Source: a virus (Duplodnaviria > Heunggongvirae > Uroviricota > Caudoviricetes). From it: DNA of 12,502 bases. Both the position numbers and the translations under genes were made by a program. The stretch lies in the IMG/VR virus record IMGVR_UViG_2541047430_000021, one strand, 5' to 3'. The notes beneath the pieces are model-generated. The model had not been told where the DNA came from. It saw only the letters and a program-made list of their open reading frames with translations, and ran no database searches. Positions 1 through 12,502 of the stretch are shown one piece after another (position 1 is the first letter of the stretch; each line of letters starts with the position of its first letter).

Positions 1-387
1 GTGGGCCCGTCGTCCGTCTGGCACCATCCATCACAGCGATAAAGGCTCTCAGTATGTGTCACTGGCCTATACGGAGCGACTAGAAGAAGCCGGATTACTG
101 GCATCAACAGGGAGTACAGGCGACTCGTATGACAACGCGATGGCTGAGAGCATCAATGGTCTTTACAAAGCGGAGGTAATACACCGTAAGAGCTGGAAAA
201 ACCGTGCAGAAGTGGAACTGGCCACACTAACGTGGGTGGACTGGTATAACAATCGACGATTGCTGGGAAGGCTGGGCCATACTCCTCCGGCAGAAGCAGA
301 AAAAGCTTATTATGCTTCCATCGGAAACGATGATCTGGCAGCCTGAGTTCACAGATAAAGCACTCTCCAGGAAACCCGGGGCGGTTC
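1..387 (+). mobile_element. IS3-family insertion sequence, right-hand portion (continues left of the window); right end approximately 385-390
   Basis: Transposase ORF ends at 346. The minus-strand rusA-like frame loses RusA-like sequence (DLDNILKAPLD then unrelated EPPRVSWRVLYL) at about 385-390, placing the IS/prophage junction there. The exact terminal inverted repeat cannot be confirmed without the left end. Confidence 0.65.
2..346 (+). CDS. IS3-family transposase (OrfB, DDE/integrase core), C-terminal part; 5' partial
   Basis: The frame is open from the window edge; translation WARRPSGTIHHSDKGSQYVSLAYTERLEEAGLLASTGSTGDSYDNAMAESINGLYKAEV... carries the HSD(K/R)GSQY and DxYDNA(x)AES motifs typical of IS3-family OrfB. 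Stop TGA at 344-346. Confidence 0.85.
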   Translation, partial: WARRPSGTIHHSDKGSQYVSLAYTERLEEAGLLASTGSTGDSYDNAMAESINGLYKAEVIHRKSWKNRAEVELATLTWVDWYNNRRLLGRLGHTPPAEAEKAYYASIGNDDLAA

Positions 388-624
388 ATCCAGTGGTGCT
401 TTCAGGATATTGTCCAGGTCACGACGGCGCTTATCCGGTGGCTCTGCAATAATCTTTATCACCAGCCTTCCGGACAGGTTTAATTTCAGCCGCTGCTGGC
501 GAACAATAAGTGCCACATCCCGGCGATAACGCTCACCGGCTTTTGATACAAAATATGTGCAGCCACGACGTCGCCAGTAGGTGTTCACCGTCGGCGGGTA
601 AGGCAAAACAAACACTATACGCAT
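349..624 (-). pseudogene. rusA: rusA-like Holliday junction resolvase, 3'-truncated by the IS insertion
   Basis: ATG at 624-622 with GAGG SD 7 nt upstream. N-terminal ~79 aa (LPYPPTVNTYWRRRG..., PDKRRRDLDNILKAPLD) resemble E. coli RusA (LPWPPSNNRYYR..., PDRRRRDLDNLQKAAFD); the last ~12 codons are IS-derived. Confidence 0.75.
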
Positions 625-636
625 CAGTAACCTCTT

Positions 637-1686
637 TTACCCGAGCACGCCGGTTGCAAAGGCGTGATCAAGAAAACGAAAAATTAAATCAACCTGGGAA
701 CCATGCTTTTCTTCGAACGCCAGCGGATCCGCATGAAGCTCGTTGTGATGCTCCCGACACAGCGGTAGCGTGAAAATATCGTGGGATTTTGTTCCCATTC
801 CGCCCTGACCATGACCAATCAGATGATGAGGATCGTCCGCTGGCTTACCACAACACGCACACGGCTGTGTCTTTACCCAGCGTGTGTATTTCTCATTTAC
901 CCAGCGGCGACGTTTAGGTCGTTTCATGAAGGATTCCGGAGACTCCGGATCAACGGCAATGCTGACCACCGTCTTTTCCTGTGGTGGGTTCTGTTGCTGG
1001 TGGGTGTGAGGCGGTAGCGCAATATTTTTTGTGCGCTGCTTCAGTACGCTGGTGGCGGTCTGTTCTCCCGGTATGATGTCGCTTTCACGGTATACGGAGC
1101 GGATTTTTTCCGCACGCAACCCCAGCGAACGACGTAATACCGCTTCCGGTAGCGCGTCCGCCACCTGATTGCGGACCGCCCACCAGGATAATTCAGCCAG
1201 AGATAATTCACGCTCCTGTGCGCCATTCATTGCGTGACGGATGATGTCAATCATCCAGGCGGCCAGATTCTGTTGAGCAAGTTGATCCAGTGAATCAGAT
1301 GTCTGCTCCCGCAGCTGGTTGTCGCAGTGCCAGCACAACACCATCGCGCCGGTACCGTAACGGTGAATGACGGTTTCGCTGTGATGATAATCACCGTGTA
1401 GCCACTGGCAGGATTTCACGTGACGTAATAACCAGTCAGACAGTGCACCAGCGCCACCCGCAGCACGGATCACCCGCTCATCGCTGAAAAATGGCAGTAG
1501 TGATTTATCTTCCGCCAGCGGCTGGTGAACGGCAGGTACAACCCCGGACGGCAGAGCTCGCATGCTTTTTGGTTCCGGCTCCACCAGTATTCTGCCGTTA
1601 TGGAATGCTGACATTGATTCACGGCCTGGCTTAACGATAACCAGACCGAGTTCCGGTACCAGAACAGGTCGAAGTAATACCCGCAC
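637..1686 (-). CDS. DUF968/YdfU-like prophage protein with C-terminal HNH-like zinc-finger motif
   Basis: 349-codon ORF, GTG start at 1686-1684 with GGAGG SD (1691-1695 on plus). C-terminus CACCGKPADDPHHL...LCREHHNELHAD resembles an HNH signature. Position upstream of rusA matches the ydfU position in Qin-type prophages (from memory). Confidence 0.7.
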   Translation of the reverse strand: MRVLLRPVLVPELGLVIVKPGRESMSAFHNGRILVEPEPKSMRALPSGVVPAVHQPLAEDKSLLPFFSDERVIRAAGGAGALSDWLLRHVKSCQWLHGDYHHSETVIHRYGTGAMVLCWHCDNQLREQTSDSLDQLAQQNLAAWMIDIIRHAMNGAQERELSLAELSWWAVRNQVADALPEAVLRRSLGLRAEKIRSVYRESDIIPGEQTATSVLKQRTKNIALPPHTHQQQNPPQEKTVVSIAVDPESPESFMKRPKRRRWVNEKYTRWVKTQPCACCGKPADDPHHLIGHGQGGMGTKSHDIFTLPLCREHHNELHADPLAFEEKHGSQVDLIFRFLDHAFATGVLG

Positions 1687-1687
1687 A

Positions 1688-1966
1688 TTACCTCCAGATC
1701 CGTTGCTGGAATGTGCGGGACGGACGCGGTGGCCGTTCGGAGTAAGGGAGCCTGACGGAGATTATCCAGTGACGGTAGTCGAGGCTAAGGGCTTTTTTAA
1801 CCTCGCATCCGCGCCTGCGGTAACACTGAATGAGCCATTCGGCCTGTTCTTCAGTGCATGGGGGATGCTGGTACCAGTCAGATTTGAATGCGTAAAAACA
1901 CCGTCCGCGCCTGCTGGCAAAGACGGCAGAATCATCAGAATTGTATAATTTGGTATCGTGCGCCAT
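1688..1966 (-). CDS. hypothetical prophage protein (92 aa), coupled to the downstream DUF968 gene
   Basis: ATG at 1966-1964; stop TAA at 1690-1688 lies 1 nt before the next gene's GTG. The longer TTG-initiated ORF (to 2047) would begin inside the hok terminator hairpin and is not favoured. Confidence 0.5.
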   Translation of the reverse strand: MAHDTKLYNSDDSAVFASRRGRCFYAFKSDWYQHPPCTEEQAEWLIQCYRRRGCEVKKALSLDYRHWIISVRLPYSERPPRPSRTFQQRIWR

Positions 1967-2035
1967 CGGTTGTCTCTGCTGGCGCAGCAGGTGCCAGTTG
2001 TTCAGGCTGGCGTGCGAATTGTAAACCAGAATGCC

Positions 2036-2063
2036 AGGAAAAAACAAAACCCGCCGAAGCGGG
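2036..2063 (-). terminator. Rho-independent terminator of the hok transcript
   Basis: On the minus strand: CCCGC-UUCG-GCGGG hairpin (plus 2050-2063) followed by UUUUGUUUUUU (plus 2036-2049), about 70 nt after the hok stop. Confidence 0.75.
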
Positions 2064-2133
2064 TTAAGTGCGGGTGCGTTGAGGATGCCTGATTCATCAG
2101 AGGTGGCGAGGGATTTCTCCCTCGCCGGGTCTC

Positions 2134-2289
2134 TTACTCCTCAGGTTCGTAAGCTGTGAAGACAGCGACCTCCGTCTGGCCGGTTCGGATTCGTACCTCG
2201 CAGAGGTCTTTCCTCGTTACCAGTGCCGTCACTATGACGGTAATACAGATGACGATCAGGGCGATTAACATCGCCTTTTGCTGCTTCAT
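2134..2289 (-). CDS. hok: Hok-family type I toxin (51 aa membrane peptide)
   Basis: Translation MKQQKAMLIALIVICITVIVTALVTRKDLCEVRIRTGQTEVAVFTAYEPEE is near-identical to HokD/RelF as I recall it. AGGAG SD 9 nt upstream of ATG at 2289-2287. An in-frame upstream ATG at 2346 with its own GAGG SD could be a mok-like start. Confidence 0.9.
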   Translation of the reverse strand: MKQQKAMLIALIVICITVIVTALVTRKDLCEVRIRTGQTEVAVFTAYEPEE

Positions 2290-2338
2290 AGCCTGCTTCT
2301 CCTTGCCTTTCGGCGCGTAAGAGGCTAACCTACATGTG

Positions 2339-2410
2339 TCTAGCATGAAATTGGCCTCAGATTAATGTTAGGCGTCTTGCAGGACGCGTAATGTTAACTG
2401 GGGCTTTTCT
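2339..2410 (+). ncRNA. putative Sok-like antisense RNA (hypothesis)
   Basis: Plus-strand region antisense to the SD and ATG at 2346-2362. Candidate promoter TTGCCT(2304-2309)-17 nt-TAACCT(2327-2332). Hairpins at 2372-2387 (GCGTC-TTGCAG-GACGC) and CCUCAG...CUGGGG, followed by a U-rich tail CUUUUCUCU. Boundaries are inferred, not measured. Confidence 0.3.
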
Positions 2411-2464
2411 CTGTCTGCCTTACGGTGGCATGCCCGAGGCAGACAGCCTCAAGCACCCGCAGCA

Positions 2465-2492
2465 ATTCTACTTAACTCTCGCTTTACCGCAA
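2465..2492 (-). promoter_or_regulatory. putative sigma70 promoter of the hok mRNA
   Basis: Minus strand: -35 TTGCGG (plus 2487-2492), 16-nt spacer, -10 TAGAAT (plus 2465-2470). Predicted start near 2457 gives a ~410-nt transcript ending at the terminator. Confidence 0.45.
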
Positions 2493-2534
2493 ACCGTTTT
2501 TACCCGATATGGGAATTCCCATATCGTAATGAAT

Positions 2535-2639
2535 TCAGTTCCCTAGTCGATCCATCAAAAACACAACCAGGCAGTAAACGCCCACAACAGCAATAACAGC
2601 CAGCGCACCTTCCATTGCCAGTGAAATATCATCCGACAT
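2535..2639 (-). CDS. small hydrophobic peptide (34 aa, single predicted transmembrane helix)
   Basis: ATG at 2639-2637 preceded by AAAGGAGGG SD; translation MSDDISLAMEGALAVIAVVGVYCLVVFLMDRLGN. Below the ORF-track size cutoff. Confidence 0.45.
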   Translation of the reverse strand: MSDDISLAMEGALAVIAVVGVYCLVVFLMDRLGN

Positions 2640-2754
2640 ATTCCCTCCTTTGGTGTGAATCCCGGCGAACGTTTTTACCCCCACCGACAAATAACATATA
2701 CTAAAAAATCAATAGCTATAGCAACGCCTGTAATTGCAAAGGCTTCAGGCCAGA

Positions 2755-3399
2755 TCATTGGCGCACCTCCTGCGGCGGTTCTGGTAGCGGCATCCAGTCG
2801 GTTACATTGCGGCTCTGTGTTTCGAAAAATTCATCACCATTACGGACTACATCAAAAAACTCACCGTCTCGATATTGCGCATAAAGAACGAATGCGCCAT
2901 CACATAAAATAATTACGTGCTGACCATCATCCGGCATTCGCTCACTACAGCTTATCCAATCATCCAGAGTTACCGGATAGTTGGTTGACGTTTCCGAGAT
3001 TTCCCGAAAATTATTGGTTGACGAACCCTTTTTTTCCCGAAAGTTTCCAGCCTGAAGCATGGCGGCGCTGTCTGGCGGGGCAGCATATAGCGGCACGTAT
3101 ATTTCCGGTTCCTTATCAGCACCGGGTTGCTCTTCCAGTGAGAATGTCTTTCCGGTAAATCGATTCATATAAAGCACGGGCTCTGCTTCCAGCGAAGCCT
3201 GAGCAACAAGGGCCAGTGCTAAATCCAACTCAATTGCCTCGAGAGAATTTTTGAATGCTGTCTGTTTTACTGCAAATTTCATCGCCTTTACATTTTCACT
3301 AACATGACTGATTAACTGCTCTTTTGTAAAAGTGGTCATCTCATTCTCCTTTGATGCGAATGCCAGCGACAATTGAAGCCTGATAGCTAATTCACTCAC
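2755..3399 (-). CDS. DUF551-like prophage protein
   Basis: C-terminal W/P-rich region (DDWISCSERMPDDGQHVIILC...WMPLPEPP) resembles DUF551. GTG at 3399 overlaps the upstream stop (GTGA) with an AGGAGG SD; an alternative ATG at 3339 has an AAGGAG SD (194 aa). Confidence 0.65.
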   Translation of the reverse strand: MSELAIRLQLSLAFASKENEMTTFTKEQLISHVSENVKAMKFAVKQTAFKNSLEAIELDLALALVAQASLEAEPVLYMNRFTGKTFSLEEQPGADKEPEIYVPLYAAPPDSAAMLQAGNFREKKGSSTNNFREISETSTNYPVTLDDWISCSERMPDDGQHVIILCDGAFVLYAQYRDGEFFDVVRNGDEFFETQSRNVTDWMPLPEPPQEVRQ

Positions 3400-3791
3400 A
3401 GTACCGCCTCCTGAAAATTGCCCTGATAGAACGCCAGTACACGCAGCATAACTTCACTCTTCCGGCACTCGCCACAGATTATGTTCTGTTGTCTGTCGTA
3501 GCGGCGTATTTCTCCGTCTGGTAACTTTCGAATCAATGTCTGGTCGGTTGCTTTCTCCGCTGCCTTACGCCATACGCGATACACCTGTTCTGATGTAAAA
3601 ACACCGTATTTACCGGGCATGTATAAATCGCCACAAGCCAGTACATCCACAAGGCAACGTCTGACTGAATGCCAGCCTGCTCCCGTCGCTCTCTCCAGTT
3701 GTGATATCGTCATGCGTTCATTTTTGCGTACCAGCCCGATAATTCGGGCCTTCAGTTCTTCACGCTGTTCGTGTGTAAAAGGTTTCGCCAT
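3396..3791 (-). CDS. hypothetical prophage protein (131 aa) with HTH-like segment and CxxC motif
   Basis: ATG at 3791-3789 with GGAGG SD; translation contains MTISQLERATGAGWHSVRRCL and ICGEC. Confidence 0.65.
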   Translation of the reverse strand: MAKPFTHEQREELKARIIGLVRKNERMTISQLERATGAGWHSVRRCLVDVLACGDLYMPGKYGVFTSEQVYRVWRKAAEKATDQTLIRKLPDGEIRRYDRQQNIICGECRKSEVMLRVLAFYQGNFQEAVL

Positions 3792-3806
3792 AAGCGCCTC
3801 CGGCTA

Positions 3807-4576
3807 TCACTTTTCCGATACAACACGGCGGGAAGAATCAGTAATCTGTCGAACAATATCCCGGTGCTTGTTCAGCTCCCGCAGCGCGGCGCAGACTCGC
3901 TCCCACTTCTGAACATCACTTTTCGCCCTGCGCAGCGCCAGGTTTGCCCTGCGCAGGGACGGAAAAATCAGCTCATCTGCTTGCGTTTCGGTAAACGATG
4001 GCAACGGCTGCACAATGTCCGCCACAGTTTCTGTTTTAATTTCTTCCTGTGTTGCGGCTTCCCGGACTGGTAACGCAGCACCTGCTGGCTGAGGAAAGGC
4101 CTTACCATCATTTTTCGTTACCGGCGCGGCTTTCGGATCTGCTGGTAAATTACCCCCCGACATGCAGTAACGAAATTTACCGTTCTGATTAACGCGTGCC
4201 AGCCGCCCCGTTGCGGTTACCACCGCCAGCGTGGAAGCAACCTTGCGAGTACTGACGCCGAACTTACCCGCCAGTTCCTCACACGTTTTAGCACCATCCT
4301 GACCGATAAACTCAACCATCATGTCTGCGGTAACTTTTGGAGCGACCTCTTCGGTTACCACATCCGGCGCTTCAGGTTGTAGTGCCTGCCCTTCGGTTAC
4401 CCCGGCTTCACCTTCGACAGCCAGAAACCAGGTGTGACCCGTTTTATCAACAACGCCATTTTTTTGAGTTCCCACAGTTCGTTAAGAACTTCTTCACGGC
4501 TGATATCAAGCCGCGCCGCCAGTTCAACAGAATTGGCTTTTCCCATCGCTTTCAGTGCATGCAATACAGTTTCCAT
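3807..4576 (-). pseudogene. tandem winged-helix protein gene split by a frameshift at an A7 homopolymer
   Basis: Frame A: ATG 4576 (GAGGT SD), [39 protein letters not shown]..., stop after 59 aa at 4397. Frame B (-1) continues [14 protein letters not shown]... to 3807. The junction is the A7 run (plus 4459-4465). The second domain (VEFIGQDGAKTCEELAGKFGVSTRKVASTL...NQNGKFRY) repeats the pattern of the first across the shift. Confidence 0.6.
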
Positions 4577-4601
4577 CGAAAATTTACCTCGTCAAAAATT
4601 C

Positions 4602-5342
4602 TCACATACCCTGACGTCCAACGTTTGACCGCCAGCTCTCCCAGTTAAAATTCACCCAACGACCACCATTCATGGTCATACGGTCCATCACCCGATCTCC
4701 GAGGAGTGTGCTCATCGCTGCGTGATTCAGGTTCGTCAGCATTCCGACACTACGCATCGAAGCCGTTCTGCGGTCGACTATCTGGTTCAGCGTGACCTGC
4801 TCGTTGCGCGTATCCCGCTGCATGCCAATTTCATCAAGGACCAGAAGGTCAACTCCACAAAGCTCCTGTAAAAATTTTTCCCCGGACTGGCCGTTGTCGT
4901 AGCCGTCATGCAACACGCTCATGACATCGGACACGGTGACGATAATCACGCTTCTCCCCTTCGCCATCAGCCGATTGCCAATCGCTGCTGCCAGGTGATT
5001 TTTACCGGTACCAGGTTTACCGCTGAACACGAAGTTTGTACATCCGGTCATCAATTCATCGGCAATGGATTTCGCCTGGCTCAGAGCATGGCGCTGACCG
5101 TCGTTCTGCACCCGGTAGTTCCCGAATGAGCACTTCCTGTGAAGCGGCTGGATGCCCGCACGGTTCAGGATTTTTTCAACCCGCACCTGATGATTCAGGC
5201 GGTTAATCTCCTCGCTGCGTTTTCGTCCTTCAGCAAGTTGCCATTCCCGCCACTCCTCCACCGTCCGGTACGGTGGAACCGCCCCCTGTGGTGCAAGTCT
5301 GCGAATACGTTCAAGAACCCCAACTGCCGCAATGTTTTTCAT
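4602..5342 (-). CDS. DnaC/IstB-like AAA+ helicase loader (phage replication protein, YdaV-like)
   Basis: Walker A GKPGTGKNHLAAA and Walker B LLVLDEIG. ATG at 5342-5340 with GGGGGTGA SD. The 246-aa length matches Rac YdaV (from memory). Confidence 0.9.
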   Translation of the reverse strand: MKNIAAVGVLERIRRLAPQGAVPPYRTVEEWREWQLAEGRKRSEEINRLNHQVRVEKILNRAGIQPLHRKCSFGNYRVQNDGQRHALSQAKSIADELMTGCTNFVFSGKPGTGKNHLAAAIGNRLMAKGRSVIIVTVSDVMSVLHDGYDNGQSGEKFLQELCGVDLLVLDEIGMQRDTRNEQVTLNQIVDRRTASMRSVGMLTNLNHAAMSTLLGDRVMDRMTMNGGRWVNFNWESWRSNVGRQGM

Positions 5343-5348
5343 GACACG

Positions 5349-6311
5349 TCACCCCCTGAATCCCGGCGGTATTTCAGTGTCCGGTTCAGAAATGTGATTC
5401 ACGCAACGCTGCGCGGGCGAACGCCCCAGGCGGATAACCAGTTCATCCCATTTTTCCCGGAGTTTTGCCGGACTCATGATGTTTTTTACCCAGAACGAAT
5501 CCCGCTGGAGACGCCCAAACATTTCACAAATTTGTCTGTGAGTTCTGCCATCCAGCATCCGCATTGTCCGCACGTCATTGGCCCATGCAGTCCAGTTGGG
5601 TTCTTTCGGTCTCGTGATCTCGCCATCATCGCTGGCCGCCTGCTCGTAAAGACTCACGATTCGTCCCCAGATCCACTGTGCGCACACCAAATCTTCCTGA
5701 CTTCCCCACTGGCGTTTTTTCGCACTGAACACAACCGCGTCAGGGTGTCGGGTTAAAAAATTCTGTTCAGCCGTCTGCGGGTCCGGTTGCGAAGCGTCCG
5801 GACAAGAAGATCTTTTATCTGACGGATCAGGTTTTAATACTGACGGATCGGGGTCAATCATCGCCCCCCTAATCGGCAGTTTGTTATCAACAGTTGATCC
5901 ATCAAAATTTGACGGGTCAACCGTTGAGGGGGCAATATTTGACGGGTCAACTGTTAACGGGTCATTTTTTGCCGGGCTAATTTTTCTTTTCGGTTTATAT
6001 GACTCACGCGCCGCCGCAGCAGCTGCTTCGAGTTTTTCCACATTAAGCCGATAGATATTGCTTACATTACGCCCACCGACCTTACGCTCTTCCTTCGTCA
6101 GCCAGCCCTCTTTCGCCAGTTCTGCAATAGCCGATTTCACTGTGGATTCACTTCTTGCACCGATCTGACGCCGGATAGTTTCAATGGCAGGCCATGACAC
6201 GCCCTCGTCATTGCTGTAGTCTGCAAGACGGGCCATAACCGCCACCCTGGATAAGATCATGCCGGTGAAGGCGCACCCTTCCCAGACAAGACCATGAAGC
6301 TTGCTGCTCAT
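5349..6311 (-). CDS. replication initiator (O-like/YdaU-like) with N-terminal winged-helix domain
   Basis: N-terminus LHGLVWEGCAFTGMILSRVAVMARLADYSNDEGVSWPAIETIRRQIG...AIAELAKEGWL is an HTH typical of phage replication initiators. Lies immediately upstream of the DnaC-like gene. ATG at 6311; alternative GTG at 6326. Confidence 0.8.
   Translation of the reverse strand: MSSKLHGLVWEGCAFTGMILSRVAVMARLADYSNDEGVSWPAIETIRRQIGARSESTVKSAIAELAKEGWLTKEERKVGGRNVSNIYRLNVEKLEAAAAAARESYKPKRKISPAKNDPLTVDPSNIAPSTVDPSNFDGSTVDNKLPIRGAMIDPDPSVLKPDPSDKRSSCPDASQPDPQTAEQNFLTRHPDAVVFSAKKRQWGSQEDLVCAQWIWGRIVSLYEQAASDDGEITRPKEPNWTAWANDVRTMRMLDGRTHRQICEMFGRLQRDSFWVKNIMSPAKLREKWDELVIRLGRSPAQRCVNHISEPDTEIPPGFRG
5820..5965. 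repeat. iteron-like direct repeats (putative prophage origin) inside the initiator gene
   Basis: TGACGGATCAG (5820-5830), TGACGGATCGG (5841-5851), TGACGGGTCAA (5910-5920), TGACGGGTCAA (5940-5950), AACGGGTCAT (5956-5965); an AT-rich stretch follows at 5962-6000. They encode the repeated peptide DPLTVDPSNIAPSTVDPSNFDGSTVD. Confidence 0.55.
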
Positions 6312-6333
6312 AAAACCCCCGAACACCGTGCTT

Positions 6334-6759
6334 TTAGTGCATCACCACAGCATTCCCTGCCGGGCCGCCGCGATTCATCTGGTCATACAAAACAACCGCT
6401 GACGCAACAAAATCATCGACATCCTTCACCAGCCGATCCCTCCGTTCGACGATCTCACGGTAATATTCAGAACTGTGGCTGCGCATACGGGCCACCAGCA
6501 AAGGCGGCATCGCCTTTTCGATCGCCGGTAACAGAGCCTGCATTTTTTCAACAGCATCAGGGGTGTCTTTATCCAGCCAACGGAAAATTTTCTGGGTATT
6601 ACGGGCCAGGGCTTCCGGATGGCTGTCGTCATACAGTTCCGGGAACGTCATTCCCAGCTCGAAATACGCTTTGGTAATTTTCGCAGCCGGTACTTTTTCG
6701 CCGTCCGGATGCGCCCAGACATTCATCGCCATGCGGATGTGTTCATGCTTGATTTTCAT
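6334..6759 (-). CDS. YdaT-like (CII-like) prophage regulator
   Basis: Begins MKIKHEHI..., as I recall Rac YdaT does; 141 aa. ATG at 6759 overlaps the upstream stop (ATGA); GGAG SD. Confidence 0.75.
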   Translation of the reverse strand: MKIKHEHIRMAMNVWAHPDGEKVPAAKITKAYFELGMTFPELYDDSHPEALARNTQKIFRWLDKDTPDAVEKMQALLPAIEKAMPPLLVARMRSHSSEYYREIVERRDRLVKDVDDFVASAVVLYDQMNRGGPAGNAVVMH

Positions 6760-7058
6760 GAATCAACTCCATCAGATAAGCATGCACTACAATCACCTTC
6801 AGCATGAACTACATGTGTTTGCCCCAAACGAATGCCGCTCGCATACTCAGGCCAAATAAGCTCCCAATCATGGGGTCGTAGCTCCGCCCTACTTACTTGG
6901 CCTTCCGTCGCAGATTCGATCATAAGGGCGCGGGTTGGAGATATAGCTGTTCGTCCAGACGCCATTTGCGATAAGTAAGATGGCGATACACCAAGTCTGG
7001 CCGCGAATTTCTTAGCATCACCAACCCTTAATGATTTAATAAACTCTTTTAATGTCAT
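6756..7058 (-). CDS. Cro-like HTH protein (YdaS-like), first gene of the early-right operon
   Basis: Translation MTLKEFIKSLRVGDAKKFAARLGVSPSYLSQMASGRTAIS... is a Cro/CI-type HTH. GAGGAAGG SD before ATG at 7058. Divergent from the regulator gene. Confidence 0.8.
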   Translation of the reverse strand: MTLKEFIKSLRVGDAKKFAARLGVSPSYLSQMASGRTAISPTRALMIESATEGQVSRAELRPHDWELIWPEYASGIRLGQTHVVHAEGDCSACLSDGVDS

Positions 7059-7064
7059 ACCTTC

Positions 7065-7150
7065 CTCGGTTTAGTGTTTTTTTGCGAGTTTAGTGTTTAA
7101 TAAACCATTAAGTCAAGTATTTGCTTGTTTAGTGATTACTAAAGATAATT
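7065..7150. promoter_or_regulatory. OR-like divergent promoter/operator region
   Basis: Minus-strand promoter: -35 TTGACT (plus 7111-7116), -10 TAAACT (about 7087-7092). Plus-strand promoter: -35 TTGCTT (7121-7126), 17 nt, -10 GATAAT (7144-7149). GTTTAGTG motifs at 7069, 7088 and 7127; near-palindromes GTTTAATAAAC (7094-7104) and TTTAGTGATTACTAAA (7128-7143). Confidence 0.5.
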
Positions 7151-7155
7151 ACCAC

Positions 7156-7527
7156 ATGCAAAAAAAAGAAATTCGCCGTTTACGTCTCAAGGAGTGGTTT
7201 AAAGATAAAACTCTGCCACCCAAAGAGAAGAGCTACCTATCTCAACTAATGAGTGGGAGAGCCTCGTTTGGAGAAAAGGCTGCCAGAAGAATAGAGCAAA
7301 CATACGGGATGCCGGAAGGGTATCTGGATGCGGAATACGCAGAACAACCGGGGGGTTCTCCACCACATGCAGGGTTAACGTCTAATCAACTGGAATTATT
7401 GCAGATTTTTTCAGCCTTCCCTGAGGATGAGCAACGCCAGATAATCAGCGAGTTAAAGCAGAAAAAAGAATCAATGGAAGATCTCATAGCGAGATGGATT
7501 GCGGCGCAAAAATGCCGCCGCGCCTGA
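7156..7527 (+). CDS. CI-position HTH regulator (PaaR2-like), probably leaderless
   Basis: ATG at 7156 lies ~7 nt after the GATAAT -10 and has no SD. HTH-like segment KSYLSQLMSGRASFGEKAARRIEQTYGMPEGYLD. The ORF-track start at 7093 is a GTG inside the operator region. Confidence 0.65.
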   Translation: MQKKEIRRLRLKEWFKDKTLPPKEKSYLSQLMSGRASFGEKAARRIEQTYGMPEGYLDAEYAEQPGGSPPHAGLTSNQLELLQIFSAFPEDEQRQIISELKQKKESMEDLIARWIAAQKCRRA

Positions 7528-7547
7528 GTTATAAAACCGGAGGAAAC

Positions 7548-7739
7548 ATGAATAGAGCCCTTTCACCAATGGTTTCTGAATTTGAAACCATTGAACAAGA
7601 AAACAGTTACAACGAATGGCTGCGTGCGAAAGTAGCAACGAGCCTTGCAGATCCGCGCCCAGCAATTCCCCATGACGAAGTTGAGCGCAGAATGGCAGAA
7701 CGCTTTGCTAAGATGCGCAAGGAACGGAGCAAGCAGTAA
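7548..7739 (+). CDS. paaA2: ParE-associated antitoxin (PaaA2-like, 63 aa)
   Basis: GGAGG SD 5 nt before ATG 7548; 63-aa product directly upstream of the ParE toxin gene (1-nt gap). Length and arrangement match my recollection of the three-component paaR2-paaA2-parE2 system; the symbol is assigned from memory. Confidence 0.7.
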   Translation: MNRALSPMVSEFETIEQENSYNEWLRAKVATSLADPRPAIPHDEVERRMAERFAKMRKERSKQ

Positions 7740-7740
7740 A

Positions 7741-8019
7741 ATGTTACCCGTGTTATGGCTTGAAAGCGCAGATACCGACCTAGATGATATAACTAGTTAT
7801 ATTGCTCGTTTCGACATAGATGCGGCTGAACGCTTATGGCAGCGATTAAGGGGTTGTGTGCTGCCGTTATCCGAACATCCGTATTTATACCCACCAAGCG
7901 ACAGAGTACCTGGCTTGCGTGAGATTGTAGCCCACCCTAACTATATAATTCTATACCGCGTAACAACATCAAGCGTTGAAGTAGTAAACGTGATCCACGC
8001 AAGACGCCAGTTTCCCTAA
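7741..8019 (+). CDS. parE2: ParE/RelE-superfamily toxin (92 aa)
   Basis: Translation MLPVLWLESADTDLDDITSYIARFDIDAAERLWQRLRGCVLPLSEHPYLYPPSDRVPGLREIVAHPNYIILYRVTTSSVEVVNVIHARRQFP shows the ParE/RelE pattern (PG-RE-V--P-YIILYRV----V-V--V-HARR). Confidence 0.85.
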   Translation: MLPVLWLESADTDLDDITSYIARFDIDAAERLWQRLRGCVLPLSEHPYLYPPSDRVPGLREIVAHPNYIILYRVTTSSVEVVNVIHARRQFP

Positions 8020-8043
8020 CTTTCACTACCAATAGAAACATAA

Positions 8044-8101
8044 CAACCGCAACGACTTTATCAAAAGCGTTGTGTTTGTTATGTCCCGCGGTTTAGTTTT
8101 T
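8044..8101 (+). terminator. possible terminator of the regulator-TA operon (tIMM-like), weak
   Basis: Imperfect 13-bp stem AACAACCGCAACG / CGTTGTGTTTGTT (one mismatch, one G-U) with a 13-nt loop, followed by the T-rich GTTTAGTTTTTA. Confidence 0.3.
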
Positions 8102-8135
8102 ACTTGACTTAAGTTTAATGTTTATTAAACTAAAA
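8085..8135 (+). promoter_or_regulatory. OL/PL-like promoter-operator for the plus-strand early-left operon
   Basis: -35 TTGACT (8104-8109), 16 nt, -10 TAAACT (8126-8131). Palindrome GTTTATTAAAC (8120-8130) and GTTTAGT/GTTTAATG motifs (8090, 8113) echo those in the OR-like region. Confidence 0.45.
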
Positions 8136-8449
8136 ATACCAACCCACCCCGCCCCACAGAACGCAGGGAAATACTTCGAGTTACCCGGCAGTGGTCAGGG
8201 GTTAAGTAGCCAGCCCGAGGCGTATGAACATGACGGCAGGGTTCAACTTTAATAACTATGCAGCAGTTTTTTGTTCCGCTACCCCGGCGTTAAGGGGAAA
8301 CAGAGGGTTTCTCAGTGGGCGAAGTCAAACATCAGAATGGAAGGCATCCCGGGATCGGCAAAGAAGCAGCAATGGCGCTTTATATTGACATCAGCGCCAT
8401 TGCAGGACAGGTAAGAGTTATCAGAGCGGTAACTAAGCGGTATGCGCCT

Positions 8450-8650
8450 TTACTTCAGAAAGTCTCTGGTGAGTGCACCGAAGATATTGTCAACGATTTC
8501 GTCATCGAACTGCGAGGACTCATCTTCAGTTACAAGGTGACCACAATTTTTGCAGATGGCTCCCGCGAAACTGTCAGAGCCCTGCGGCTTAAAGGATGTG
8601 TCAAAGACTTCGCCACCACATTCTGGGCAAGAAAACTTGATTGTATTCAT
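8450..8650 (-). CDS. small zinc-ribbon protein (66 aa)
   Basis: ATG at 8650 with GAGGA SD 8 nt upstream; MNTIKFSCPECGGEVFDTSFKPQGSDSFAGAICKNCGHLV... carries two CxxC pairs. Oriented opposite to the surrounding early-left genes. Confidence 0.55.
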   Translation of the reverse strand: MNTIKFSCPECGGEVFDTSFKPQGSDSFAGAICKNCGHLVTEDESSQFDDEIVDNIFGALTRDFLK

Positions 8651-8742
8651 AACCAATTTCCTCTCGAGTAACAGACCCCTCAGAGGATACCACCTCGCCT
8701 GACGTGGTTAAAAGCAGGCAACGCTAACCACAAGGAGCCGAC

Positions 8743-8961
8743 ATGCAGAAACGAGAACCCGTCATCATCGCGCCAGACTATACCGATGATGAACTTTATG
8801 AGTGGATGCACCAGAAAATTAATGCAGCGCAGGATCTGAAATGGGCCAATGAAGCCAGGGCTAAGCAGGCTGAAAATCTGTCCGCTCTGGAGCAGGATAT
8901 CACCAATCTGGAAAAAGCAGCGGCATTAAGCATTGCCAGAATGATTACATACCCGCGTTAA
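8743..8961 (+). CDS. hypothetical early-left protein (72 aa)
   Basis: AAGGAG SD 5 nt before ATG 8743; translation MQKREPVIIAPDYTDDELYEWMHQKINAAQDLKWANEARAKQAENLSALEQ... is predicted helical. Confidence 0.6.
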   Translation: MQKREPVIIAPDYTDDELYEWMHQKINAAQDLKWANEARAKQAENLSALEQDITNLEKAAALSIARMITYPR

Positions 8962-9317
8962 TAGCTAACCAACGAAGCTAAGGTTGGTAATTAAGGAGTT
9001 CTCCACGGGTGAGGTGGAGTGCGTGCGCCGGACACGGGTGAGCATACGGCACTGACAGTTTACTGAAAGGATATTTCCCTGAAAAGTCAGACCATAACGC
9101 GAAAGCGCACGGCGAGGTAGCTGGTTCATAGATAGCCTGTCGTTAAATTTTCGTCGACCGTGCGCTTCCGGTTGTGGCAATCCGCGAAATGGCGCGGCGG
9201 TAAGTATGGAGGGGTTATTCCTTCCCCCGTTGAGGACACCGGGTTGTCAGGTTGACCATACGCTTAAGTGACAACCCCGCTGCAACGCCCTCTGTTATCA
9301 ATTTTCTGGTGACGTTT

Positions 9318-9360
9318 GGCGGTATCAGTTTTACTCCGTGACTGCTCTGCCGCCCTTTTT
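9318..9360 (+). terminator. terminator-like hairpin plus T5 run (tL-like), weak
   Basis: GGCGG (9318-9322) ... CCGCC (9350-9354) with inner CAG/CTG pairing, followed by TTTTT (9356-9360). The loop is long, so efficiency is uncertain. Confidence 0.3.
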
Positions 9361-9364
9361 AAAG

Positions 9365-9512
9365 TGAATTTTGTGATGCGGTGAATGCGGCTGAGCGCAC
9401 GCGGAACAGTTAAAACCAAAAACAGTGTTATGGGGGGATTCTCTGTATCCGGCGTTAATTGTTAACTGGTTAACGTCACCTGGAGGCACCAGGCACCGCA
9501 TCACAAAATTCA
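9365..9512. repeat. 19-bp perfect inverted repeat flanking a 110-bp spacer
   Basis: TGAATTTTGTGATGCGGTG (9365-9383) is the exact reverse complement of CACCGCATCACAAAATTCA (9494-9512). The spacer contains GTTAACTGGTTAAC. Confidence 0.8.
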
Positions 9513-9529
9513 TTGTTGAGGACGCGATA

Positions 9530-9718
9530 ATGGAAACGTTATTACCAAACGTTAATACGTCTGAAGGTTGTTTTGAAATTGGTGTCACTATCAGTAACCC
9601 TGTATTTACTGAAGATGCCATTAACAAGAGAAAACACGAACGGGAGCTATTAAATAAAATATGCATTCTTTCAATGCTGGCCCGTTTACGTCCGATACAA
9701 AAAGGATGCTGGCAATGA
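9530..9718 (+). CDS. hypothetical early-left protein (62 aa)
   Basis: GAGGA SD 7 nt before ATG 9530; stop TGA 9716-9718 overlaps the next start (ATGA). Confidence 0.5.
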   Translation: METLLPNVNTSEGCFEIGVTISNPVFTEDAINKRKHERELLNKICILSMLARLRPIQKGCWQ

Positions 9719-9906
9719 ATACAGCATTTGCACTTGTTCTGACAGTTTTTCTTGTTTCCGGAGAGCCAGTTGATATTGCAGTCAGTGTTCACAGGACAAT
9801 GCAGGAGTGTGTGACTGCAGCAACCGAACAGAAAATTCCCGGTAACTGTTACCCGGTCGATAAAGTTATTCACCAGGATAATAACGAAATCCCGGCAGGT
9901 CTTTAA
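9715..9906 (+). CDS. hypothetical small protein (63 aa) with signal-peptide-like N-terminus
   Basis: ATG 9715 with AAGGA SD 8 nt upstream; MNTAFALVLTVFLVSGEPVD... has a hydrophobic N-terminus and two Cys in the mature part. Confidence 0.5.
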   Translation: MNTAFALVLTVFLVSGEPVDIAVSVHRTMQECVTAATEQKIPGNCYPVDKVIHQDNNEIPAGL

Positions 9907-9998
9907 AACAGTTCCGTAATAAACATCCGATTTCATTCTTATATGCCAGCAATGGCAGGGATTTGTTCACCCTTAAATCTGTAATGAGGTAAAACAAA

Positions 9999-12470
9999 AT
10001 GAGTAAAGTCTTTATTTGCGCCGCCATTCCGGACGAACAGGCAATAAAGGAAGAAGGTGCCGTCGCTGTAGCCACTGCCATTGAAGCCGGTGATGAACGT
10101 CGCGCCCGCGCAAAATTTCACTGGCAATTCCTGGAACATTATCCGGCTGCTCAGGACTGCGCTTATAAATTTCTTGTTTGCGAGGATAAACCCGGTATAC
10201 CCCGCCCTGCCCTCGATTCCTGGGATGCTGAATATATGCAGGAAAACCGCTGGGATGAGGCGTCTGCTTCCTTTGTCCCGGTCGAGACTGAATCCGATCC
10301 GATGAACGTCACTTTTGACAACCTGGCCCCTGAAGTACAGAACGCTGTCATGGTTAAGTTCGACACATGTGAAAACATCACTGTTGATATGGTGATTAGC
10401 GCACAGGAATTGTTGCAGGAAGACATGGCAACATTCGACGGCCATATCGTTGAAGCGTTGATGAAAATGCCAGAAGTTAACGCTATGTATCCGGAGCTTA
10501 AGCTGCATGCCATCGGGTGGGTTAAGCATAAATGTAAGCCTGGTGCCAAATGGCCCGAAATTCAGGCAGAGATGCGCATCTGGAAAAAACGTCGCGAAGG
10601 TGAACGCAAGGAAGCCGGAAAATACACGTCTGTTGTTGATCTCGCCCGCGCCAGAGCCAATCAACAGCACACTGAAAATTCAACAGGAAAAATCAACCCG
10701 GTCATTGCTGCCATTCATCGCGAATACAAGCAGACATGGAAAACACTGGATGACGAACTGGCCTACGCTCTCTGGCCTGGTGATGTGGATGCCGGAAACA
10801 TTGACGGCAGCATCCATCGCTGGGCAAAAAATGAAGTTATCGACAACGGCCGCGAAGACTGGAAGCGTATCTCGGCATCAATGCGCAAACAGCCTGATGC
10901 CCTTCGCTACGACCGCCAGACTATTTTTGGCCTTGTCCGTGAACGTCCGATCGACATTCACAAAGACCCTGTGGCACTGAACAAATACATTACTGAATAC
11001 CTGACTACAAAGGGCGTGTTTGAAGATGAAGGAACAAATCAGAGCGCAACTGACACTCTCTCGTCGCCAGTACCAGAAACTGATGCAGTGGAAACGGCAA
11101 TTCCGGACAACGAAAAAACCGAATGCAAAGTGGAAGTCGAACCATCTGTAGAGCGTGAGGGGCCGTTCTACTTCCTCTTCACCGACAAGGATGGCGAAAA
11201 ATACGGTCGCGCAAACAAACTTTCTGGTCTGGATAAGGCGCTGGCTGCCGGGGCTACTGAAATCACAAAAGAAGAATATTTTGCCCGAAAAAATGGCACA
11301 TACACAGGCTTACCGCAAAATGCAAATACCGCACAAAATTCTGAACAACCAGAACCGGTAAAAGTTACCGCTGACGAAGTAAAGAAAATTATGCAGGCAG
11401 CCAATATCAGCCAGCCTGACGCCGAGGAACTGCTTGCAGTATCACGTGGTGAATTTGTTGAAGGGATTAGCGACCCGAATGATCCGAAATGGGTTAAGGG
11501 GATCCAGACCCGCGATTCTGTGAACCAGAACCAGCAAGAAACGGAACAGAACGACCAGAAAGCGGAACAAAACAGCCCAAATACGCAACAAAACGAGCCA
11601 GAAACGAAACAACCTGAACCAGTAGTGCAACAGGAACCGGAAAAGATCTGCACCGCCTGCGGTCAGAGCGGTGGCGGCAACTGCCCTGATTGTGGTGCGG
11701 TGATGGGTGACGCAACATACCAGGAAATATTCGATGGAGAGAATCAGCCTGAAGTTCAGGAAAATGATCCGGAGGAAATGGAAGGTACTGCACATCAGCA
11801 CAAGGAGAACACTGGCGGCAATCAGCATCATGCCAGCGATAGTGAAACTGGCGAGGCGTCAGATCCCTTAATTAAGGCGAACGGTCATCATAATCTCACA
11901 TCCACCAGCAGAGCGGGGATTCATCTGATGATCGATCTTGAAACCATGGGAAAAAATCCCGATGCCCCGATTATCTCAATAGGTGCAATATTTTTCGATC
12001 CGCAAACCGGAGATATGGGACCGGAATTTAGTAAGACTATCGATCTGGATACTGCTGGCGGAGTCATTGATCGGGACACCATGAAATGGTGGCTTAAACA
12101 ATCACGCGAAGCGCAATCTGCCATTATGACCGATGAAATCCCGTTAGATGATGCACTGTTACAATTGCGGGAATTTATCGACGAAAACTCCGGTGAATTT
12201 TTTGTTCATGTCTGGGGAAATGGAGCCAACTTCGACAACACGATTTTGCGCCGTTCATACGAACGGCAGGGGAGCCCCTGCCCGTGGCGTTACTACAACG
12301 ATCGCGATGTACGCACAATCGTTGAGCTGGGGAAAGCCATAGACTTCGATGCCAGAACGGCTATTCCATTCGAAGGTGAGCGCCATAATGCACTTGATGA
12401 CGCCCGTTACCAGGCAAAATACGTTTCAGCTATCTGGCAAAAACTGATCCCGAGTCAGGCTGATTTTTAA
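9999..12470 (+). CDS. prophage exonuclease (RecE position) with C-terminal DEDDh/DnaQ-like 3'-5' exonuclease domain
   Basis: 823-aa ORF with GAGG SD. C-terminus has the three DEDDh motifs: IDLETMG, VWGNGANFDNTIL, HNALDDARYQAKY. Internal CTACGQSGGGNCPDCG zinc-ribbon-like motif and a Q/E/N-rich low-complexity linker. Confidence 0.85.
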   Translation: MSKVFICAAIPDEQAIKEEGAVAVATAIEAGDERRARAKFHWQFLEHYPAAQDCAYKFLVCEDKPGIPRPALDSWDAEYMQENRWDEASASFVPVETESDPMNVTFDNLAPEVQNAVMVKFDTCENITVDMVISAQELLQEDMATFDGHIVEALMKMPEVNAMYPELKLHAIGWVKHKCKPGAKWPEIQAEMRIWKKRREGERKEAGKYTSVVDLARARANQQHTENSTGKINPVIAAIHREYKQTWKTLDDELAYALWPGDVDAGNIDGSIHRWAKNEVIDNGREDWKRISASMRKQPDALRYDRQTIFGLVRERPIDIHKDPVALNKYITEYLTTKGVFEDEGTNQSATDTLSSPVPETDAVETAIPDNEKTECKVEVEPSVEREGPFYFLFTDKDGEKYGRANKLSGLDKALAAGATEITKEEYFARKNGTYTGLPQNANTAQNSEQPEPVKVTADEVKKIMQAANISQPDAEELLAVSRGEFVEGISDPNDPKWVKGIQTRDSVNQNQQETEQNDQKAEQNSPNTQQNEPETKQPEPVVQQEPEKICTACGQSGGGNCPDCGAVMGDATYQEIFDGENQPEVQENDPEEMEGTAHQHKENTGGNQHHASDSETGEASDPLIKANGHHNLTSTSRAGIHLMIDLETMGKNPDAPIISIGAIFFDPQTGDMGPEFSKTIDLDTAGGVIDRDTMKWWLKQSREAQSAIMTDEIPLDDALLQLREFIDENSGEFFVHVWGNGANFDNTILRRSYERQGSPCPWRYYNDRDVRTIVELGKAIDFDARTAIPFEGERHNALDDARYQAKYVSAIWQKLIPSQADF

Positions 12471-12502
12471 TGTTCAACCGTCGCCAGTTGTCGTTGATAT
12501 TC
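12470..12502 (+). CDS. possible start of next early-left gene (3' partial)
   Basis: ATG at 12470-12472 overlaps the exonuclease stop (TAATG); only 11 codons (MFNRRQLSLIF) are visible. Confidence 0.2.
   Translation, partial: MFNRRQLSLIF

Follow-up and report, generated by a model that had tools for sequence, protein, structure and literature searches.

A one-nucleotide deletion in an adenine tract probably inactivated a YdaW/DUF1627-family gene in an Sp12-type prophage of Escherichia coli O157:H7

The minus strand of the window, i.e., the whole 12,502-nt stretch of viral DNA analyzed here, carries a frameshifted gene of the YdaW/DUF1627 family at positions 3807 to 4576, which was recognized by its Pfam match and its 100% match to the corresponding locus of E. 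coli EDL933. The gene is split into two overlapping open reading frames (ORFs), one of 59 codons that is translated from an ATG at 4576 and ends with TAA at 4397 and one of 222 codons that, according to the ORF listing and its translation, extends from 4475 to 3807. The overlap falls at a homopolymer (4459 to 4465) that reads T7 on the plus strand and A7 in the sense of the gene. After addition of one A to this run in silico, an unbroken ORF of 256 codons is obtained, whose product is identical to the homologous protein P0001 along all 254 aa of the latter. The first-pass annotation had regarded the two ORFs as a single protein of about 256 aa across the A7 run, requiring a ribosomal shift of -1, and both the junction and the direction of the shift were confirmed; apart from such a shift, the ORFs can be joined by one A added by RNA polymerase. 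Its proposal that A6 or A9 would restore the frame was mistaken, because this is achieved by A8 (also by A5 or A11), and the A9 copy of strain MBT-5 is itself frameshifted.

The DUF1627 reading frame of the window is hence not intact, and the A7 run leads to a stop after 59 codons. In the ancestral A8 tract, the codons AAA AAA AAT specify K38, K39, and N40. The truncated frame (4397 to 4576, minus strand) begins with 39 native residues and continues out of frame for another 20; according to the translation and the structural model, it retains helices 1 to 3 of the first winged helix. Ancestral residues 40 to 256 are encoded by the second frame (3807 to 4460, minus strand). A start-codon scan for in-frame downstream ATG, GTG, and TTG codons revealed none with a usable Shine-Dalgarno sequence (best match, four of six positions), so that the remaining 217 codons now lack their own start. 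As for the GTG at 4475, it merely results from the way in which ORFs are listed.

Judged by its sequence, the window is an Sp12-type lambdoid prophage of E. coli O157:H7. Positions 387 to 12491 are 99.93% identical to the region annotated in strain Sakai as "prophage Sp12, lambda-like phage" (12.1 kb, 9 mismatches, no gaps), and the absence of gaps implies that Sakai carries A7, too. Sakai Sp10 had first been considered on the basis of the DnaC-type loader and an intact ExoVIII-type exonuclease, but the Sakai record gives Sp12. Hundreds of complete O157:H7 genomes match the gene region with 100% identity. At the identical locus of EDL933, the RefSeq/PGAP label is "DUF1627 domain-containing protein, frameshifted" (pseudogene EDL933_RS12290), and the frameshift is therefore already known from a public annotation. 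For Sakai, the downstream ORF only is annotated, as the coding sequence (CDS) ECs_2274, "hypothetical protein." The first 386 positions of the window (plus strand; ORF fragment, 2 to 346) represent the 3' end of a transposase gene of the IS3 family (rve_3, 46.3 bits) that ends with GGTTCA at 386, and the element interrupts rusA. This insertion is missing from Sakai, EDL933, LSU61, DEC5B, F3113, and PV15-279, whose alignments all end at window position 387, which indicates that the window originates from another O157:H7 strain that has an additional insertion sequence (IS).

The affiliation of the repaired protein is supported by profile searches and by gene order. It matches Pfam PF07789 (DUF1627) over the whole 155-position profile with residues 91 to 245 (331.6 bits, E = 7.5e-100, cutoff of 28.1) and phrog_630, whose function is unknown, with E = 2.8e-132. 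In EDL933, LSU61, DEC5B, JNE132847, MBT-5, and the Rac prophage of K-12, the gene is located after a DnaC-like loader gene and before a DUF977 gene, and the homologues have a full-length architecture of 249 to 256 aa. The copies in isolated phages, e.g., the Shigella phages POCJ13 and 75/02 Stx and phiSTEC1589-Stx1c, are annotated as a single gene, either "putative YdaW family protein" or "DUF1627 domain-containing protein," and in the literature search only incidental mentions of DUF1627 were found. Among the closest known counterparts is YdaW (b1361) of the K-12 Rac prophage, which shares 57% identity with residues 1 to 154 of the repaired protein and whose gene occupies a matching position, directly preceded by ydaS, ydaT, the gene of the replication initiator, and ydaV, which is DnaC-like. 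K-12 YdaW (186 aa) matches these residues only and, too, does not reach the full length of the family, but it is shortened C-terminally, whereas the lesion described here removes 1 nt from a homopolymer close to the N terminus. The sole functional hint for ydaW is a report that its overexpression blocked the toxicity of the retron-Sen2 toxin RcaT in a screen (bioRxiv 10.1101/2020.06.22.160242). The DUF977 gene downstream (3396 to 3791, minus strand) corresponds to Sakai ECs_2273, which is named "phage exclusion protein"; a weak PHROG match of residues 86 to 137, the second winged helix of the repaired protein, to "Ren-like exclusion protein" was also observed (phrog_142, E = 4.9e-6), in which no single stretch was significant.

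The full-length AlphaFold model of the repaired protein has a mean pLDDT of 55, and of this model the N-terminal domain alone is usable. This first winged helix-turn-helix (wHTH) domain (residues 1 to 52; 4422 to 4576, minus strand) is predicted with a pLDDT of about 80 and an H-E-H-H-E-E topology, superposes in Foldseek on the wHTH domains of Csa3, Z-alpha, ArsR, and IclR with a root mean square deviation of 1 to 1.7 A, and has weak profile matches to HTH_11, MntR, and ArsR. A second wHTH domain is predicted for residues of about 84 to 138 (4164 to 4328, minus strand), where the DUF1627 region defined by Pfam begins on its N-terminal side. Modeling of residues 78 to 150 on their own gave a pLDDT of 71.6 and an H-H-H-E-E topology, with TM scores of 0.6 to 0.74 to Z-alpha, FtsK-gamma, MarR, IdeR, and FeoC (Foldseek) and weak HTH_PafC/FeoC matches. 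A Pro/Ala-rich linker of low confidence precedes a long C-terminal helix (residues of about 197 to 252; 3822 to 3989, minus strand; pLDDT of 54 to 70), which might serve as an oligomerization element. Both predicted domains share the H-H-H-beta-beta arrangement of winged-helix domains of the MarR/ArsR/IclR type, Z-alpha, and FtsK-gamma and superpose on them at 1 to 3 A, but all sequence matches of the DUF1627 protein to known winged-helix families are below the family cutoffs, and sequence searches of the PDB returned only subthreshold wHTH matches and spurious designed repeat proteins. The first-pass view of a tandem winged-helix protein with two similar repeats therefore holds for the fold, which is predicted twice by topology and superposition, but not for the repeats. 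BLASTP of the two halves yielded no alignment, and an hhalign comparison of domains 1 and 2 was insignificant (E = 0.01, probability of 4%, 27 columns of the HTH motif), so that a repeat is not supported at the sequence level. The frameshift cuts the first domain at the end of helix 3, ahead of the beta-hairpin, and the truncated product accordingly lacks the wing.

An uninterrupted ORF of 249 to 256 aa is present in 77 of the 80 IMG/VR loci, and the three split ones are 99.6 to 100% identical to the window; apart from these near-identical copies, separate homologous genes with the same boundaries, which according to the first-pass annotation would have spoken against a single broken gene, were not encountered. 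A large protein search retrieved 2,240 homologues, and among the matches listed nearly all have 249 to 256 aa. All nine homologue sequences that were read out, including the 277-aa protein P0005, cross the junction in one frame with the motif ELK(K/R)(N/K)GVVDK. The greater length of P0005 reflects an internal tandem duplication that spans the second winged helix and the wing. In P0034 (403 aa) and P0080 (372 aa), DUF1627 is predicted to be fused to the neighboring DUF977 protein, and these fusions may be read-through or gene-calling artifacts.

These data bear directly on the idea of a gene fission, according to which the 59-aa peptide and possibly also the 222-codon ORF (ECs_2274) would be functional as separate products. 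The annotation of ECs_2274 as a CDS in Sakai is in agreement with it, as are two PHROGs families of fragments, i.e., phrog_16668 (residues 1 to 53, profile of 59 positions) and phrog_11856 (residues 95 to 252). Nevertheless, such a fission is highly improbable for several reasons: none of the start codons of the downstream ORF is accompanied by a ribosome-binding site, its GTG is located within the upstream coding sequence, the cut separates helix 3 from the wing and thus disrupts a folded domain, the last 20 residues of the peptide are read out of frame, and all split copies are near-identical O157 copies.

The A run might alternatively represent a recoding site, at which RNA polymerase adds an A or the ribosome slips by -1, deliberately providing a 59-aa and a 256-aa product, as the first-pass annotation had suggested with a slippage site for short and long isoforms. 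Either event, a single inserted A or a -1 slip of tRNA-Lys on the run, would indeed give the exact wild-type protein. Single-A insertions by E. coli RNA polymerase at A/T runs have been reported, with an exponential rise with run length (PMC5574713), and genes frameshifted in long A runs can be rescued by transcriptional slippage (PMC1088944). However, the runs at which transcriptional slippage is selected against or used comprise about nine nucleotides and sometimes eight (PMC1088944), i.e., they are longer than A7. The 0-frame sequence CTC AAA AAA ATG contains the heptamer C AAA AAA, and a canonical slippery heptamer of the type X XXY YYZ was not found in the 0 frame at the run. Folding of the 121 nt from 4360 to 4480 (minus strand), which cover the A run and about 100 nt downstream, resulted in -33.7 kcal/mol compared to a shuffle mean of -33.0 (z = -0.21), and hence the RNA of this segment folds no better than its shuffles.

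The run was compared in 85 loci, i.e., the 80 of IMG/VR and those of five fetched genomes: it is an in-frame A8 in 36, broken by a G (AAAAGAAAT, AAAAGAAAA, AAAGAAAAT) in 45, and A7 in 4 loci. The run is therefore not conserved, with AAAAGAAAT and similar variants at about half of the loci. Neither the conserved two-ORF arrangement in divergent homologues that would be expected for a programmed -1 frameshift nor the long run conserved with the frame split that would be expected for programmed transcriptional slippage was observed: the window has A7, the homologues have in-frame A8 or G-broken runs, the split is limited to one near-identical allele, the divergent homologues are all in frame, and so, simply, was the ancestor. 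The locus resembles E. coli dnaX (A AAA AAG, programmed -1 shift) as well as mxiE of Shigella and IS elements (A8 to A9, slippage) in that a shift at an A-rich tract would join two ORFs. It differs from all of these systems in that the split is not conserved, the tract is shorter, the heptamer is imperfect, a stimulatory structure is lacking, and the ancestor is in frame, and a deliberate use of the run is very unlikely.

The distribution of tract lengths was determined in 5,426 complete E. coli genomes with exact probes of 90 to 93 nt that have identical 42-nt flanks and differ in the A run. A7 was detected in 287 genomes, A8 in 164, A9 in a single one, and A6 in none. The sole A9 copy belongs to a different DUF1627 allele in strain MBT-5 (NZ_CP058682.2, locus 1432 to 2203), which is likewise flagged as frameshifted by PGAP. 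The tract is a mild, recurrent indel hot spot. The presence of at least two independent tract mutations, A7 in O157:H7 and A9 in MBT-5, would be compatible with a phase-variable contingency locus, i.e., reversible on/off switching at high frequency via slipped-strand mispairing, which was another reading offered by the first-pass annotation. A7 is short for a contingency locus. Moreover, the exact probes revealed no length variation of the A tract inside the O157:H7 clade among complete genomes, and the polymorphism among close isolates that characterizes contingency loci is thus not seen. A7 in 287 genomes is opposed to A6 in none and A9 in one unrelated genome, a G interrupts the run in many alleles, and the exact A8 allele occurs in six genomes only, of which the five that were examined in this region lie outside typical O157:H7. 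Phase variation is accordingly most unlikely as an explanation.

The comparison of A-run lengths in homologous prophages, which had been proposed in the first-pass annotation, points to the direction of the change. An intact orthologue of 771 nt (WP_000450876.1) is present in O55:H7 strain DEC5B and in the O157:H7 strains LSU61, F3113, and PV15-279, with the same neighbors on both sides, and the exact A8 allele was also found in O55:H7 DEC5E. It is 100% identical to the window across the gene except for the extra A and is located in the same prophage context, but with A8 instead of A7 it constitutes a continuous ORF of 256 aa. The A8-repaired query matches exactly six complete genomes, i.e., DEC5B, DEC5E, LSU61, F3113, PV15-279, and JNE132847; the last has the same module with the exact A8 allele in a different prophage mosaic. 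Five of these six were examined in this region, and none of them belongs to typical O157:H7. Over the shared 10.1 kb, DEC5B and the window differ by 14 mismatches and a single gap. In the published stepwise model (PMC6256406), O55:H7 is the ancestor from which typical O157:H7 descends by way of the beta-glucuronidase-positive O157:H7 lineage, to which PV15-279 belongs; LSU61 has been termed "ancestral" (PMC10758439). The polarity is based on this published phylogeny: given A8 in the outgroups and the lineage order, A8 is ancestral and A7 is derived. The lesion is consequently confined to one clade with intact outgroups (lineage order from PMC6256406), as expected for a frameshift pseudogene. 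No substitution has occurred in the gene since the frameshift, compared to about one expected at a divergence of 0.14% from DEC5B, so that a relaxation of selection cannot be shown from these data.

Some sequencing platforms are prone to errors in homopolymers, which would speak for a sequencing or assembly error as the cause of the missing A. Such an error is effectively refuted by the identical A7 in Sakai, EDL933, and 287 complete genomes from many laboratories, together with the consistent A8 in related lineages.

Overall, with a probability of about 0.88, a lineage-fixed deletion from A8 to A7 inactivated the YdaW/DUF1627 gene, which is an ordinary pseudogene in a decaying prophage. Among the readings of the first-pass annotation, the recent inactivating indel is the one that is borne out by outgroups with the same allele and A8 and by homologues that are single genes; the slippage site with two isoforms is contradicted by the unconserved split, the interruption of the run in roughly half the alleles, and the lack of a stimulatory structure, and the phase-variable homopolymer by the invariant tract length within the O157:H7 clade. 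The gene belongs to the early-right (replication) operon of the Sp12-type prophage, and its ancestral product of 256 aa is predicted to have consisted of two winged helices, a disordered linker, and the long C-terminal helix. This protein, whose gene immediately follows that of the DnaC-like helicase loader, probably bound DNA in an accessory or regulatory capacity. Most plausibly, replication slippage removed one A from the A8 tract, leaving the A7 at 4459 to 4465, and according to the strain distribution this deletion postdates the split of typical O157:H7 from O55:H7 and beta-glucuronidase-positive O157:H7, and A7 is fixed in typical O157:H7. Translation initiated at the ATG now ends at 59 codons, yielding three winged-helix helices and 20 foreign residues, and a loss of function would be the likely consequence.

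Further inactivating lesions in the same prophage are in line with such a pseudogene. The integrase gene intR of Sp12 is a pseudogene in the Sakai record, and rusA is interrupted by the IS3-family element in the window. In addition, the repressor and the integrase of Sp12 have been described as disrupted and its recombination, portal, head, and minor tail functions as defective, and neither circularization nor replication nor packaging of Sp12 was detected (PMC2669165).

A residual activity of the locus is conceivable in two ways. The A7 run might be leaky and provide a little wild-type YdaW-family protein, since the insertion rate of RNA polymerase climbs with run length and some leakiness at A7 is possible, which should however be small; or the 59-aa fragment, an HTH without a wing, might interfere with the intact DUF1627 paralogues of other O157 prophages. 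We consider either unlikely, but if true, the "pseudogene" would still be active in the cross-talk between prophages in O157:H7.

The inactivation of the YdaW/DUF1627 gene represents a clean case of a homopolymer deletion that was fixed on the branch to typical O157:H7 and that in itself matters little. The A7/A8 difference could mark lineages, i.e., typical O157:H7 versus O55:H7 and beta-glucuronidase-positive O157:H7. With respect to the Sakai annotation, ECs_2274 should be corrected to the 3' part of a broken gene instead of an independent gene. Of modest value is the prediction, based on structural models, that a very common protein family of lambdoid phages appears to consist of two winged helices and a long C-terminal helix.

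Some minor observations concern the remainder of the early region. A second homopolymer, an in-frame A8, is located at 7160 to 7167 (plus strand) in codons 2 to 4 (ATG CAA AAA AAA GAA) of the ORF from 7156 to 7527, a short CI-like repressor gene of 123 aa that is homologous to ECs_2279 and has no Pfam match; this run is as long as the ancestral tract in which the DUF1627 gene was broken. Between this repressor-like gene and a Cro/YdaS-like gene, which are divergent, the intergenic region (7059 to 7155) harbors a T7 run at 7077 to 7083 and three direct copies of TTTAGTG(T/A)TT at 7070 to 7079, 7089 to 7098, and 7128 to 7137, which are candidate operator repeats. Rfam searches identified the sok antitoxin RNA (2134 to 2458, minus strand; 116.9 bits), which overlaps hokD, and the small RNA DicF (9304 to 9355, plus strand; 76.7 bits) upstream of dicB. 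With sok/hokD, DicF/dicB, relBE (7548 to 8019), and ydfC, the early region resembles a module of the K-12 prophage Qin.
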